Made by a program: the position numbers and the translations under genes. Positions 2,198 through 6,652 of a DNA stretch of 64,000 bases are shown one piece after another (positions within the stretch are counted from its first letter, which is position 1; the number at the start of each line of letters is the position of its first letter). Below the pieces are notes generated by a model. The model saw only the letters and a list, made by a program, of their open reading frames with translations. It did not search any database and had not been told where the DNA came from. Source of the DNA: a virus (lineage: Duplodnaviria; Caudoviricetes); the IMG/VR virus record IMGVR_UViG_3300032270_001157, positions 1 through 64,000 of that record. One strand, 5' to 3'.

Positions 2198-2236
2198 TAT
2201 TTTGGATAAAACAACTAAATAAGGAGACAATTAGAT

Positions 2237-2281
2237 ATGGACATGACTAGAGGATATGTGCCTCTGCATGTCCATTCTTAG
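2237..2281 (+). CDS. dnaE: 14-aa N-terminal fragment of DNA polymerase III alpha (MDMTRGYVPLHVHS-stop)
   Basis: AAGGAG at 2221-2226 precedes ATG 2237. The peptide is the canonical DnaE start (F/Y)VxLHVHS and ends at TAG 2279-2281. It is not in the ORF track. Confidence 0.85.
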   Translation: MDMTRGYVPLHVHS

Positions 2282-2288
2282 GTGGGCT

Positions 2289-4130
2289 ATGTACTCACTT
2301 TTGGATGGACTTTCGCAGCCAAGAACTATTGCTGAAAGATGTCAAGAGATAGGAGCAACTTCTTGTGCATTAACAGATCATGGTAATATTGCTGGATCAG
2401 TTAAGTTTTATACAGAAATGAAAAAGAAGGGCATCAAGCCTATTCTTGGGTGTGAGGTTTATCTTTGCGATCAAGATCCTAAGATTAAAACCAAAGAGAA
2501 TAAAGACTTAACTCACTTCGTTATTCTAGCTAAGAATTATGAGGGGTGGAAGAGTCTTATTAGAATTGTATCCGAATCTAATCAACCAGATCATTTTTAT
2601 CATAAACCCAGACTAAATATCGAAACTCTTGCACAATATTGTAATAATAATATTATTGGATTTTGTGGTCATGCTGGATCTTACTTAGCAGATAAGATTA
2701 GTGAGAATAATCAGTTGATTGGAGACTGGAGAAATATTGGTATTGACCAAATTGGTAAACTTAAAGACATTTTTGGTAAGGATAATTTCTTCTTGGAGGC
2801 ACAATTGATGGATTCGGTCAATTCTCCTATTCAAACAGTTTTAACTGGTGCTATGAGGGATTTGGCCAAAATTACCAATACAAAAATCATTTCCACGCCA
2901 GACGCTCACTATTGCCGTAAGGAGGACGCTGTAGATCAAAGGGTGCTTCTCTGTAATAATTTAAAAACGACCTTCCCAGAGATCAGCAGAAAGATTAGCA
3001 ATGATGAGGAAGTGCCTCTTGGGTGCTTTTTTACATCCGACAACTTCCATATCCTGTCTTCAGAAGAAATGGGTCATTTTCATACCGAAGAAGAAATGGA
3101 AAATACCAAGCTAGTAGACGCATTGTGCGAAAACTATAATATCTTGGATAAGCCACATTTGCCTCCCTTTCCTTGTCCAGACGGGGCTAATCCAGATGAA
3201 TATCTAAGGCAGTTGTGTCGTAATGGATGGAGAGATAAAATTGCCAATGTTATAGATAAAGATCTTCAAAATGATTATGTGAATAGAATTAAGTACGAAC
3301 TAGAGGTTCTACAAGGAGCAGATCTTTCTAGCTACTTTTTAATAGTACAAGATATCGTCAATTATGTAAGAAGTAATAACTGGCTTCCGGGACCGGGAAG
3401 AGGTAGTGCAGCTGGTTGTTTGGTTTCTTACTTAATTGGTATTACTAGTATTGATCCTATCAAATATGGTTTATTGTTTGATAGATTTTATAATGCTGGA
3501 CGAAATAGTAAAGATCATATCTCTATGCCTGATATTGACGTAGACGTACCGATTAATAAGAGAGAAAATGTAATCGAATATATTAAGCAGTGTTATGGGG
3601 CTGATAAGGTTTCTCAAATGATTACATTTAATACTATTAAGGGTCGTGGAGCTATTAAGGACGTATTAAGAGTCTATGGTAATATATCTTTTGATGAAAT
3701 GAATAAGATTACTAAAAGTATTCCAGATGAAGCTAAAATTGCTGATGATCTTCAAGAAATGAAAGAAGAAACTGGCGAAGCATCCATTATTCGATGGGCA
3801 CTTGAAAATGAGCCAGATAAACTGAAAGAATGGTGCTATATAGATGAAAAAAACGAATTGCAAGGACCGCTTGCCAAACGATTTGAGCAGGCTATTAGAT
3901 TAGAAGGTACTAAGTCTAATCAGTCTAAACATGCGGCTGGTATTGCAATTAGTGCTCAACCATTAAATACTCTGTGTCCTATGGTCTATGACTCAAAAAA
4001 TGATCAACTCATAGCTGGTATGGAGATGCAGGATTTAGAAGCGTTAGGTATTATCAAGTTTGATATTCTTGGGGTGGCAATGTTAGATAAAATTATGACT
4101 ATTCAAGACATCTTAGCAAAAGGAGACTAA
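2289..4130 (+). CDS. dnaE: DNA polymerase III alpha, PHP + palm/thumb part
   Basis: MYSLLDG, ALTDHGN, GCE, YHKPR, TPDAHY, GPGRGSAAGCLVSYLIGIT, MPDIDVD, HAAG, KFDILG. The track start at 2256 (MCLCMSILRWA) is not DnaE-like. Confidence 0.95.
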   Translation: MYSLLDGLSQPRTIAERCQEIGATSCALTDHGNIAGSVKFYTEMKKKGIKPILGCEVYLCDQDPKIKTKENKDLTHFVILAKNYEGWKSLIRIVSESNQPDHFYHKPRLNIETLAQYCNNNIIGFCGHAGSYLADKISENNQLIGDWRNIGIDQIGKLKDIFGKDNFFLEAQLMDSVNSPIQTVLTGAMRDLAKITNTKIISTPDAHYCRKEDAVDQRVLLCNNLKTTFPEISRKISNDEEVPLGCFFTSDNFHILSSEEMGHFHTEEEMENTKLVDALCENYNILDKPHLPPFPCPDGANPDEYLRQLCRNGWRDKIANVIDKDLQNDYVNRIKYELEVLQGADLSSYFLIVQDIVNYVRSNNWLPGPGRGSAAGCLVSYLIGITSIDPIKYGLLFDRFYNAGRNSKDHISMPDIDVDVPINKRENVIEYIKQCYGADKVSQMITFNTIKGRGAIKDVLRVYGNISFDEMNKITKSIPDEAKIADDLQEMKEETGEASIIRWALENEPDKLKEWCYIDEKNELQGPLAKRFEQAIRLEGTKSNQSKHAAGIAISAQPLNTLCPMVYDSKNDQLIAGMEMQDLEALGIIKFDILGVAMLDKIMTIQDILAKGD

Positions 4131-4132
4131 TC

Positions 4133-4330
4133 ATGGCAATGCAAAAGTTTATGGACGTAGCAATCGGTGCAACTTTTAGACACGAAGGTAATGATTACCG
4201 AAAAATTCCAGAGGAGAGAATTAGCTGTTGTTCAGCTATTAATGCTCAGGGAATCAATAATGATCAACAAAGAATTCAAGTTTTACCATTAGTAGAGGTC
4301 GAAGTCCTAGGAGATACCACCCAAGCATGA
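4133..4330 (+). CDS. Small hypothetical protein (65 aa) between the dnaE halves
   Basis: AGGAG SD at 4121-4125. Its stop overlaps the next start (ATGA). Confidence 0.75.
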   Translation: MAMQKFMDVAIGATFRHEGNDYRKIPEERISCCSAINAQGINNDQQRIQVLPLVEVEVLGDTTQA

Positions 4331-5028
4331 TTAATTACAACAAAATTTGTGTGTTTGATTTTGAAACAGATGGCTCGGATCCAAAATCTTGTAGTCCTGT
4401 TCAAATTGCGGCAGTGATTATTGATCCTTTAAAATTGGAGATTGTTCCCAATTCTGAATTTAATATCTTTTTTAAACCAGAAGTATTATCGAATGATGAG
4501 CAATATCAGTATACCACAGATATCTTAGACTTTCATGCTAAGGTAAGAGGTTCCTCAAAAGAAGCTATCTTAGAAGAATGGAAGAAGTACCCTGCTCAAG
4601 ATCAGTCTTGGAAATTGTTTACCAACTATCTAACAATGCATCATACTCGGTCTAGCAAAAAGAGCCAATTTAGCGCTCCTATTGCTGCTGGTTACAATAT
4701 CAATAGATTTGACTTGCCAATTATTGATAGGTTAAGTCGTAAGTATGGCAATACAAATAAGGAAGAACGAAGTGATATTTTTTATCCCAGAGACGTATTA
4801 GATATTATGAATCTAGTATTCTATTGGTTTGAAAACAATGGAGATCTAAAAAATCTTTCTTTGGATACTCTTAGAGATTATCTAGGTATAAATAAAGAAG
4901 GGGCTCACGATGCTTTAAAAGACGTTAAAGACTGTGCAGAAATTTTGATTCGTTTTATGCGGCTACATCGTAATCTAGGTAATAAAATTAAGTTTAAGGA
5001 TTCATTCCAGTCACCATCACATGTCTAA
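4327..5028 (+). CDS. dnaQ: DEDDh 3'-5' exonuclease (DnaQ/epsilon-like)
   Basis: ExoI FDFETDG, ExoII GYNINRFD and ExoIII HDALKDV. Confidence 0.9.
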   Translation: MINYNKICVFDFETDGSDPKSCSPVQIAAVIIDPLKLEIVPNSEFNIFFKPEVLSNDEQYQYTTDILDFHAKVRGSSKEAILEEWKKYPAQDQSWKLFTNYLTMHHTRSSKKSQFSAPIAAGYNINRFDLPIIDRLSRKYGNTNKEERSDIFYPRDVLDIMNLVFYWFENNGDLKNLSLDTLRDYLGINKEGAHDALKDVKDCAEILIRFMRLHRNLGNKIKFKDSFQSPSHV

Positions 5029-6652
5029 AAAATTTCAATATAGTTGCGGATGTTCTTTTGATGTTCTGTCTGAACATGATGACAAAGACAGGATGACTCT
5101 TAAATTTAATCCAAAAATAGAAGAGATTAGTTTGGAGTGTCAGAAGACTTGGGATCTAATTTCAGATGGAAATACCAAGGGGTGTTTCCAATTGGAGTCT
5201 AGGCTTGGTAAATCTATGGCTAAAAAATTAAAGCCAGAGAATATCGAACAGCTTTCTGCCTTAATTAGTATTATGAGGCCGGGATGCTTGGAAGCTTTTA
5301 GAGATGGTAAATCAGTTTCTAACCATTTTATAGATAAAAAGAATGGTCAAGAATCGGTAGACTATTATCATCCGTCTTTAGAGCCTATTTTAAAGGGGAC
5401 ATATGGTGAAATGATTTATCAAGAGCAAGCTATGGAAATTGCTAAAATCGTAGCTGGCTTTGATCTTCAAGAAGCAGATATGTTAAGAAAAGCTATTGGT
5501 AAGAAAAAGCCAGAAGAGATGGCTAAGATTAAGATTAAGTTTTTAGAAGGTACAGAAAAAGTTGGAACAGTAGCCACTTCTCAGGCAGAAGAAATTTTCG
5601 GCTGGATTGAAAAGTCTCAGAGATATTCTTTTAATAAATCTCATGCCGTTAGTTATGCTATTAATAGTTATTTGTCTGCTTATACTAAGGCTCACTTCCC
5701 CAAGATCTTTTTTGCAGCATACCTAAGATTTGCAAAAGACAAGATTGATCCAAAAGCAGAGATTAAAGAATTGGTGCAGAATGCTAATGAAATGGATGTT
5801 TCTGTTTGTATACCAGACATAAGAAACTTAAATCAACTATTCATCCTCAAAAATAATAAGATCTATTTTGGCCTAACAGACATTAAAGGTTTCGGACAGT
5901 CTGTGTTTGACAAATTGGTTAAACTGAAAGAAGAGAAGAAGCTAGATTTTGACACAATGAACTGGATAGAAATGCTCATGATGGTTTTGATCAATATCAA
6001 TTCTACATCTGCTAAAGCATTAATACAAAGTGGTGCAATGTCATTCTTGGGTAAGAACAGGGTGGCTATGCTATTTGAATTTGGTTTAGTATCAGAGTTA
6101 ACTAAAAAAGAATCAGACTTTATTATAGCTAATCTATATAAATATAAATCAATAGGAGATGCTCTTCATGATCTATACCATAATGGAAAGTCTAATAAGA
6201 ACAGAAAAGCTATTATACTGGATTTAATTAACAGTCATAACAAACCGCCGTATTCTTTAGAAGACAATCCAGACTGGATCGCTGATGCTGAAGATGCCTT
6301 TTTAGGATGCAGTATCACATGTTCCAAAGTTGATATGTATGATATCACCATGACTAATACCACCTGTAAAGACTTTAAAAATACCACTCTCAAAGACAAT
6401 ATTTTGTTGTGTGGAGAAATTGAAAGTGTGGGTGTTACTAAAACTAAATCTGGTAAGACACCGGGACAAGAGATGGCGTTTGTTACTATGAGTGATGGCA
6501 CAGGAGTAATAGACTCTGTTGTATTCTTCCCAGAAGCCTACAAAGCTTATCGAAATATTTTATTTGATGGTAATGTTATTATTGTAAAGGGCAACAGAGC
6601 AAAGTCTGGCGACTCGCTAATAGTTGAAAAGACGTATATTCCTAAAACTTGA
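5021..6652 (+). CDS. dnaE: DNA polymerase III alpha, fingers/HhH/OB part
   Basis: TKGCFQLES, IMRPG, IYQEQ, ADMLRKAIGKK, YSFNKSHAVSY, FGLTDIKGFG and the OB fold EMAFVTMSDGTG. Confidence 0.95.
   Translation: MSKKFQYSCGCSFDVLSEHDDKDRMTLKFNPKIEEISLECQKTWDLISDGNTKGCFQLESRLGKSMAKKLKPENIEQLSALISIMRPGCLEAFRDGKSVSNHFIDKKNGQESVDYYHPSLEPILKGTYGEMIYQEQAMEIAKIVAGFDLQEADMLRKAIGKKKPEEMAKIKIKFLEGTEKVGTVATSQAEEIFGWIEKSQRYSFNKSHAVSYAINSYLSAYTKAHFPKIFFAAYLRFAKDKIDPKAEIKELVQNANEMDVSVCIPDIRNLNQLFILKNNKIYFGLTDIKGFGQSVFDKLVKLKEEKKLDFDTMNWIEMLMMVLININSTSAKALIQSGAMSFLGKNRVAMLFEFGLVSELTKKESDFIIANLYKYKSIGDALHDLYHNGKSNKNRKAIILDLINSHNKPPYSLEDNPDWIADAEDAFLGCSITCSKVDMYDITMTNTTCKDFKNTTLKDNILLCGEIESVGVTKTKSGKTPGQEMAFVTMSDGTGVIDSVVFFPEAYKAYRNILFDGNVIIVKGNRAKSGDSLIVEKTYIPKT

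Follow-up and report, generated by a model that had tools for sequence, protein, structure and literature searches.

A probable stop-hop cassette within the metal-binding motif of a phage DNA polymerase III alpha gene

Introduction

Natural programmed translational bypassing has been published for very few systems, namely the family of bacteriophage T4 gene 60, a single lineage of yeast mitochondria and, as a proposal, a Streptomyces phage. The gene 60 bypass and the MobA homing-endonuclease element are reported in Huang 1988 and Bonocora 2011. Here we describe an interruption of dnaE, the gene for the DNA polymerase III alpha subunit, in a 64,000-nucleotide (nt) stretch of viral DNA (positions 1–64,000 of IMG/VR record IMGVR_UViG_3300032270_001157, hereafter the window), which is part of an 86-kb uncultured virus contig. 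Ten nucleotides that begin with a stop codon separate the first strand of the PHP domain from the remainder of the protein. Comparison of this site with its relatives leads us to conclude that region 2221–2312 is probably a programmed translational bypass, or "stop-hop," cassette at the 5′ end of the polymerase gene. The literature that was searched contains no report of bypassing in dnaE, nor of a gap cassette in this gene.

In T4 gene 60, a stop codon after the take-off codon is combined with a take-off stem-loop, a 5′ stem-loop, take-off and landing codons that match, and a link to MobA; in many variants, a sequence resembling a Shine-Dalgarno (SD) element lies a few bases 5′ of the landing site, and in the mobA/gene 60 element the insert protects its carrier from nicking (Manning & Atkins, bioRxiv 10.1101/2022.08.31.505936). 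The same preprint calls the gene 60 cassette unique. Pairing within the mRNA that exits the ribosome has been proposed as the forward driver of bypassing (Wills et al., bioRxiv 10.1101/2024.12.09.627546). Stop-hops in Escherichia coli (Weiss et al. 1987, reviewed in PMC5009743) were obtained with artificial constructs at an efficiency of about 1% and without stimulatory signals; according to the review, natural in-frame stop-hops are not known, and counterparts of gene 60 with shorter gaps have long been presumed (PMC5009743). The closest proposed short case is a UUA-triggered 10-nt bypass in the terminase gene of Streptomyces phage phiHau3 (PMC10732093). The "byp" elements in the mitochondria of Magnusiomyces capitatus are mobile non-coding inserts that are bypassed by the ribosome (Lang 2014; Nosek 2015, cited in PMC5009743).

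Results

Ten nucleotides split the PHP motif of dnaE

The interrupted gene is preceded by a PD-(D/E)XK nuclease gene and a 39-nt spacer (2198–2236), which holds the SD sequence AAGGAGA at 2221–2227 (plus strand, as for all cassette features below). The first part of the gene is a 14-codon open reading frame (ORF), MDMTRGYVPLHVHS, which starts at ATG 2237, covers 2237–2278 and stops at TAG 2279–2281 (ORF1). Codons 1–6 of ORF1 are an extension peculiar to the cassette, and codons 7–14 specify the canonical first strand of the PHP domain with its HxH metal ligands, the peptide ending in HVHS. The last of these codons, UCU for Ser14 (2276–2278), is the candidate take-off codon. It is followed by a 10-nt gap (2279–2288), proposed to be untranslated, that contains UAG (2279–2281), the SD-like sequence AGGUGG (2280–2285) and the proposed landing triplet GCU (2286–2288). 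Three nucleotides beyond AGGTGG is ATG 2289–2291, the resume codon, which encodes Met at the "x" of HVHS-x-YSLLDG and in the window variant is also a possible re-initiation codon. The body of the dnaE N-half (2289–4130), comprising the remaining PHP domain and then the palm/NTPase domain, opens with MYSLLDG and continues in an intact frame that is +1 relative to ORF1. An earlier note on this DNA had pointed out the stop of ORF1, the 10-nt insert and the +1 resumption at ATG 2289, and its coordinates agree with the sequence.

A domain search identified the downstream ORF as the N-half of a DNA polymerase III alpha subunit. Its Pfam PHP match begins only at profile position 8, whereas the match of an uninterrupted relative that is 85% identical (L006) begins at position 2; ORF1 thus supplies exactly the missing HxHS strand. 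The alignment with Taq Pol III alpha starts at the residue directly after the HxH strand, placing Tyr2 of the query opposite Phe16 of the Taq protein, and shows that the other seven PHP metal-ligand positions are kept in the downstream ORF. Excision of 2279–2288 was expected by the earlier note to restore the canonical spacing of the motif, and the spacing so produced is indeed the one found in 59 uninterrupted relatives. Long ORFs in the window are ended by TAA 17 times, by TGA 8 times and by TAG 7 times. Because all three codons terminate long ORFs, the genetic code is standard, and TAG is the normal stop that it had been taken for. No tRNA genes, and hence no suppressor tRNA, were found in the window.

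The interruption recurs at one point with variable length and frame

A protein-guided scan of viral contigs yielded 80 related loci, 21 interrupted at the same point as the window and 59 continuous, which makes the window the 22nd interrupted locus. A DNA pattern for the interrupted form was matched by 57 IMG/VR viral contigs and 33 metagenome records, two sets that partly overlap; one metagenome match (L146) was discarded as spurious. In all, the comparison gave 39 unique elements and 22 distinct gap sequences. The interruption of dnaE is found at exactly the same point in about 60 independent environmental phage contigs, assembled from many samples, and this recurrence rules out an assembly error or a private mutation. 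The closest relatives of the window (96–98% identical) all carry the identical 10-nt gap, and not the contiguous HVHSxYS motif that would have pointed to an inactivating mutation confined to this phage. The identical gap is also present in L168, a locus with just 50% identity in the DnaE N-half and with resumption at GAA instead of ATG. Cultured relatives were sought as well: megablast against phages returned nothing, all tblastn matches were at or below 35% identity, which leaves the gene with no annotated reference, and a pattern scan of isolate genomes gave two chance matches only, neither of them with dnaE (L172, L173).

When the 5′ ends of related dnaE genes were aligned, as the earlier note had recommended, the position of the insert proved to be kept exactly but its length was not. 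The distinct gaps measure 6, 8, 9, 10, 11 or 12 nt, and the downstream frame is accordingly 0, +1 or +2, depending on the lineage. Each gap lies directly after the His-Val-His-Ser codons, and in every interrupted allele the Ser codon is TCT or TCC; uninterrupted alleles use TCG, TCA, TCT, TCC, AGT or AGC at this position. The first codon of every gap is TAA or TAG, and right after its last base comes the codon that is canonical at this position (CAT, CAC, ATG or GAA), with Tyr/Phe-Ser-Leu-Leu-Asp-Gly encoded next. Skipping the gap thus yields the canonical HVHS-x-YSLLDG whatever the frame.

Codon variation among the 39 unique elements was examined on both sides of the gap. The Tyr, Pro, Leu, His, His and Ser codons of ORF1 exhibit synonymous changes only, and the same is true of the Tyr/Phe, Ser and Leu codons after the gap, where Leu is specified by five different codons. 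Because the variation is synonymous only, we conclude that both sides are translated. The downstream ORFs, 609–617 residues in length, are intact in the checked variants whose loci reach the stop codon. The nascent chain at the gap is only 13–14 residues long, and its conserved portion is the PHP strand itself. One uninterrupted allele (L080:2989–3000) contains the cassette-type codons for H-V-H-S, the same 12 nt, but lacks both the gap and the MDM extension, and its start overlaps; recombination or a precise loss may account for this allele.

The landing triplets, counted by gap type, are TCT (11), TCA (4), TCC (1), ACT (3), GCT (2) and GCC (1). Sixteen of the 22 gap types end in a Ser codon, with UCY at take-off and UCU, UCA or UCC at landing, and the middle base of the triplet is C in all 22; the match in the window extends to two of the three bases (UCU versus GCU). 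Take-off and landing codons often differ at the wobble base, and the pattern is therefore one of synonymous codons and not a simple direct repeat generated by insertion. In the Ser-landing variants, the landing codon is the first UCN triplet past take-off in any frame. These gap-end triplets point to re-pairing of the peptidyl-tRNA, of which they would be the expected signature.

Covarying RNA structures flank the gap

Three structures are predicted around the gap. The 5′ hairpin (2237..2275, 39 nt) spans nearly all of ORF1. Its outer stem pairs 2237–2245, the start codon and codons 2–3, with 2267–2275, the H-V-H codons, and its inner stem pairs 2249–2253 with 2261–2265, codons 4–6 pairing with the Val-Pro-Leu region. 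The 3′ arm ends at position −1 of the take-off codon. In the window the hairpin has a folding energy of −19.0 kcal/mol (z −4.4); the mean over the elements is −17.7 kcal/mol (z −5.7), as compared with −0.7 to −2.3 kcal/mol (z about 0.1–0.2) in uninterrupted alleles. An alignment of 37 elements for the analysis of covariation was obtained by a covariance model search with a strict cut-off, which avoided weak reverse-strand and uninterrupted matches. The nine outer pairs of the hairpin are 100% paired in this alignment. One pair is split into AU in 18 elements, GC in 18 and GU in one, a compensatory exchange that corresponds to Met/Val codons on one side and CAT/CAC His codons on the other.

The second structure, a stop/gap stem-loop (2280..2300), is formed by seven pairs between 2280–2286 and 2294–2300, the latter segment comprising the last base of the Tyr codon and the Ser-Leu codons. 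The resume codon falls in its loop, as do the final two bases of the landing triplet. Of 26 distinct variants, 25 have the stem. It is 90% paired, and four of its pairs have changed on both sides; for instance, gap position 4 or 5 covaries with the third Ser-codon base, and where TAG faces CTA in some elements, TAA faces TTA in others. Scored jointly, the 5′ hairpin and the stop/gap stem gave a covariation score above those of 500 of 500 shuffles and of every slid control. In a test with chimeras between gaps and downstream sequences, the native combinations had a mean energy of −5.4 kcal/mol and the chimeras one of −3.0 kcal/mol, with 56 of 368 chimeras at least as stable as the native form; this result is supportive of the stop/gap stem but not clean, as G-U pairs blur the comparison.

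The third structure, an extended take-off hairpin (2270..2312), pairs the V-H-S codons (2270–2277) with the L-D-G-L codons (2303–2310) and encloses the stop/gap stem, and thus holds both the take-off codon and the stop. It has an energy of −20.5 kcal/mol in the window (z −6.2) and a mean of −17.6 kcal/mol (z about −5.6) over 39 elements; the same codons in uninterrupted alleles give −3.8 kcal/mol. The octamer that makes up its 3′ arm was found in 26 of 30 interrupted and 2 of 40 uninterrupted alleles. Over 11 phylogenetically independent contrasts, the octamer went with the interruption in about nine and against it in about none (sign test, p about 0.004). Synonymous sites within this arm are nearly fixed, whereas the adjacent codons vary freely. 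Because the 5′ hairpin and the extended hairpin both use 2270–2275, they are mutually exclusive, and over the 39 elements they are equally stable on average (−17.7 and −17.6 kcal/mol).

The region 2000–2600 has no match in Rfam at E values up to 1. An intron, an intein or a known structured RNA was rejected as the source of the gap on this ground, and because 6–12 nt is far below the size of any intron or intein.

A ribosome hop compared with recoding, re-initiation and RNA removal

Since the gaps fall in three frames, a single frameshift cannot serve all variants, and since most are out of frame, readthrough cannot serve these. Recoding would have to be specific to each lineage, with a +1 shift for gaps of 10 nt, a −1/+2 shift for those of 8 and 11 nt and readthrough for those of 6, 9 and 12 nt, and would add two to four loop residues after HVHS. 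Most out-of-frame variants, among them the window, have a shifted frame that stays open through the gap, and a stop codon in the A site beside an SD-like sequence recalls prfB. However, three mechanisms would then be needed for one homologous cassette with the same flanking stems, and the number of inserted residues would vary in an otherwise strictly spaced motif. A UGA within the gap of L100 lies in the shifted (+1) path, tRNA-Ser cannot re-pair from UCU onto CUU, and the SD-like sequence is located 3′ of the shift site, whereas that of prfB is 5′. The window, moreover, has the standard code and no suppressor tRNA. Recoding is for these reasons extremely improbable in our judgment; the +1 frameshift that the earlier note offered as one option fails as a general mechanism, as in-frame and +2 gaps also exist.

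A second explanation is that ribosomes terminate at UAG and re-initiate at AUG 2289 with the aid of AGGUGG, the HxH strand being either dispensable or supplied in trans by the free peptide. The window has features that suit this explanation, with an SD-like sequence 3 nt upstream of AUG 2289 and a landing triplet that is only a near-match, and the variants with non-Ser landing triplets tend toward an in-frame AUG or GUG at or beside the resume codon. Yet in 18 of 36 unique elements, the stretch from the nearest in-frame stop upstream to the resume codon contains no ATG, GTG or TTG in frame, so that these could not re-initiate, and L168 combines the identical gap with resumption at GAA. AUG at the x position is common in uninterrupted relatives as well and therefore did not evolve for restarting, and a spacing of 3 nt between SD and AUG is short. 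The PHP strand in ORF1 is under selection at the amino-acid level; with the seven other PHP ligand positions kept, neutral loss of two His ligands is unlikely, and re-initiation leaves the Ser codons at the gap ends unexplained. Re-initiation, which the earlier note also listed, is thus possible in the window but impossible in half of the unique elements, and we consider it an unlikely explanation of the cassette.

The gap might also be removed from the mRNA, by cleavage and ligation or by polymerase skipping, or endonuclease damage might have left the interrupted dnaE genes as inactive relics. In principle, the two hairpins at the flanks could mark sites of processing, and the association of the cassette with a selfish element, described below, would fit a relic. 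Against removal, we know of no bacterial or phage system that excises 6–12 nt from mRNA, no Rfam family was matched, and the pattern of Ser codons at the gap end points to re-pairing of a tRNA. Against relics, both halves of the gene have stayed intact, with purifying selection, in lineages whose proteins are as little as 50% identical. The probability of either is very low.

A ribosome hop is the only single mechanism that would fit all variants. It is favored because the gaps occur in all three frames, because there are elements free of start codons, because L100 has a stop in the shifted frame, and because the landing codons are mostly Ser. Bypassing from UCU to GCU, the remaining translational option of the earlier note, is thus the best supported, with the covarying stems adding to the evidence from frames and landing codons.

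Some observations weigh against a hop, and these need to be set beside those that favor it. The landing triplet GCU of the window mismatches tRNA-Ser at the first codon position, and the window resumes at an AUG that has AGGUGG 3 nt upstream; additional in-frame AUGs are present at 2256 and 2268. A nearby in-frame AUG or GUG accompanies 5 of 6 non-Ser-landing gap types versus 3 of 16 Ser-landing types (Fisher's test, calculated by hand, ∼0.011, with gap types counted without phylogenetic correction). In the ACT-landing variants (L020, L031, L055–L058, L068), the cognate UCA overlaps the junction two bases on and is in the wrong frame. With respect to structure, the stop/gap stem taken alone in the window (−5.7 kcal/mol, z −1.5) is not significant, and the landing codon is located in the loop of this stem, unlike in T4. 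Finally, the 14-residue nascent chain is far shorter than the 46 residues of gene 60. Because non-Ser landing accompanies a nearby AUG or GUG, re-initiation may contribute besides, or instead of, hopping in the window variant. In the window, the ribosome might alternatively hop 19 nt and land on UCA 2295–2297, the first cognate Ser codon; this codon is in frame, and the resulting product would lack three residues.

Probable homing-endonuclease genes and remnants adjoin the cassette in relatives

In four loci (L039, L040, L104 and L085), an ORF of 238 residues separates the upstream PD-(D/E)XK nuclease gene from the cassette, and its stop codon falls within codons 2–3 of ORF1. The 238-residue product matched endonuclease, HNH and endonuclease VII families in PHROGs (phrog_3322, 1e-22; phrog_374, 2e-18) but was not recognized by Pfam. 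C-terminal remnants of such an endonuclease, 80, 56 and 51 residues in length, are present beside the cassette in at least three more lineages. The distance from the nuclease gene to the cassette is 769–808 nt where the endonuclease is full length, 249, 177 and 141 nt where remnants are found, and 11–102 nt where there is no trace of it (39 nt in the window); these distances form a series of decay. Immediately before the start codon, ∼20 nt that include the Shine-Dalgarno sequence align between the 3′ ends of the endonuclease genes and endonuclease-free spacers such as that of the window, whose last ∼20 nt look like a vestige of the 3′ end of a lost HNH-like homing-endonuclease gene. None of the uninterrupted alleles has an endonuclease gene of the 238-residue type next to dnaE, and in these the dnaE start overlaps the upstream stop.

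Interrupted alleles are scattered over a tree built from 70 DnaE N-halves, on which supported branches force at least 11 changes of state. Judged by analogy with mobA/gene 60, this distribution is the pattern of a homing-endonuclease cassette that would have spread by recombination and then decayed. By the same analogy, we infer that the gap would protect its carrier against the cassette-adjacent nuclease by breaking the nuclease target in the conserved motif, and we propose that the nuclease gene has since been lost from the window lineage. The suggestion in the earlier note that the insert is the remnant of a lost intron was close in spirit, but the remnant would be that of a free-standing homing-endonuclease element and not of an intron.

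The window also contains, at 585–1157, a gene for a 191-residue HNH/endonuclease VII-like protein (phrog_3322, 2e-25). This gene was considered as the source of the responsible nuclease and rejected: it is absent from this place in the closest interrupted relatives (L002–L005), and it is not tied to the gap, as uninterrupted dnaE alleles (L052/L053) are accompanied by a gene 68% identical to it. It appears to be a second free-standing homing endonuclease, independent of the one linked to the cassette. In another locus (L136:1274-3328), the upstream PD-(D/E)XK nuclease gene is 684 codons long and includes a LAGLIDADG_3 domain (E 4e-07), which suggests that this neighboring gene carries an intein or endonuclease insertion.

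Organization of the surrounding region

The dnaE gene of the window is split a second time, at the palm/fingers boundary (2289–6652), in a layout common to its relatives. The N-half (2289–4130, plus strand) is the first piece of this split. Between it and the C-half are an ORF of 65 residues (4133–4330) that has no family match and a gene for a DnaQ-like RNase_T exonuclease (4327–5028); the C-half (5021–6652) contains the finger, HhH and OB domains. A promoter-like site (2136–2164; TTGACA, 17 nt, TATAGT; 11/12 matches) lies ∼70 nt upstream of ORF1, within the 3′-terminal part of the nuclease gene. The 600 nt scanned contain two such sites, no more than shuffled sequence gives. The window was also scanned for additional ORF pairs that might hide hops; only ordinary overlapping genes were found, and the scan was uninformative.

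Discussion

In the mechanism that we propose, ribosomes would start at AUG 2237 and synthesize the 14-residue peptide ending in HVHS. With peptidyl-tRNA-Ser on UCU 2276–2278 and UAG in the A site, the tRNA would release its codon, the mRNA would slide by 10 nt, and the tRNA would re-pair at the end of the gap, at GCU in the window (a 2/3 match) and at a true Ser codon in most relatives. Decoding would then restart at 2289, giving one polypeptide with the canonical HVHS-MYSLLDG sequence. Roles can be suggested for each of the three structures. The stem that holds the stop codon may hinder or slow termination. The 5′ hairpin may re-zip as its 3′ arm leaves the ribosome and thereby pull the mRNA forward by approximately the length of the gap; because this arm sits inside the ribosome at take-off, re-zipping needs ∼9 nt of forward movement of the mRNA, and the 9-nt length of the arm matches the gaps of 6–12 nt. 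Such movement would agree with the forward driver proposed by Wills et al. (bioRxiv 10.1101/2024.12.09.627546). Until the first ribosome arrives, the extended hairpin may leave the start codon accessible.

The cassette itself would have arrived with a free-standing HNH-like homing endonuclease that inserted just upstream of dnaE. Combining these elements, we tentatively picture a minimal, self-contained bypass machine in which the two exclusive hairpins act as switch and ratchet and in which an HNH homing endonuclease spreads the cassette as target-site immunity. We hold this fuller picture with distinctly less confidence than the hop itself and put its likelihood a little short of even.

All the signals of the cassette are contained in only ∼90 nt, and more than 20 natural gap variants together with matched uninterrupted alleles provide built-in mutational controls. 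Take-off, sliding distance, the choice of landing codon and the exiting-mRNA driver can therefore be tested in a reporter. The locus would also show a way for a homing endonuclease to place an immunity scar in the metal-binding motif of an essential gene without lethal cost. If the fuller picture is true, efficient short stop-hops would be a general and overlooked means by which phages tolerate endonuclease scars. Gene callers will label such polymerases as truncated or as pseudogenes.

Among natural cases, T4 gene 60 resembles the dnaE cassette in many respects. In both, the stop codon is directly 3′ of a take-off codon that forms part of the 5′ arm of a stem-loop, and a further stem-loop lies 5′ of the take-off codon. 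Codon matching between take-off and landing, a feature of gene 60, is seen in most of the dnaE variants, and many of these have an SD-like sequence just 5′ of the landing site. Likewise, the dnaE cassette sits close to the 5′ end of its host, an essential replication gene and one that is also split. As with mobA/gene 60, it abuts, in several relatives, a gene for a free-standing HNH-type endonuclease, often decayed or lost, and its phylogeny is patchy. The differences are equally clear. The host gene is dnaE and not a topoisomerase gene, and there is neither sequence homology nor a match to Rfam or another family. The gap is 6–12 nt instead of 50 nt and would be spanned with a Ser (UCY) tRNA instead of a Gly (GGA) tRNA, and the nascent chain of 13–14 residues has no evident KKYK-like signal. 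The landing codon of the dnaE cassette is inside the loop of the stem that contains the stop and not 3′ of the stem, and its 5′ hairpin includes the start codon and rivals an equally stable extended hairpin.

The E. coli stop-hops share with the dnaE site, as interpreted here, a short hop over a stop between matched codons in any frame, in which 9 nt can specify one amino acid; unlike those constructs, the dnaE site is natural, is conserved in an essential gene and is flanked by covarying structures. The prfB +1 frameshift differs in that the frames vary among dnaE homologues, UCU cannot re-pair onto CUU, and the SD-like sequence is 3′ of the site. The proposed phiHau3 bypass, like the dnaE cassette, involves inserts of ∼7–10 nt that break a conserved phage protein, has a flanking stem-loop and SD-like signals, and is derived from conservation of the junction. 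Its trigger, however, is the rare sense codon UUA with tRNA limitation, in a proposed regulatory role, whereas the dnaE trigger would be a stop codon, and the dnaE cassette is linked to a homing endonuclease and offers many more independent variants. The mitochondrial byp elements correspond to the proposed dnaE cassette in being mobile non-coding inserts bypassed by the ribosome, but they are 27–55 nt long, are present in many copies across the mitochondrial genes of a eukaryotic organelle and have no endonuclease link. If our interpretation is true, the dnaE cassette would represent a second, unrelated family of phage bypass elements and a rare miniature relative of gene 60.

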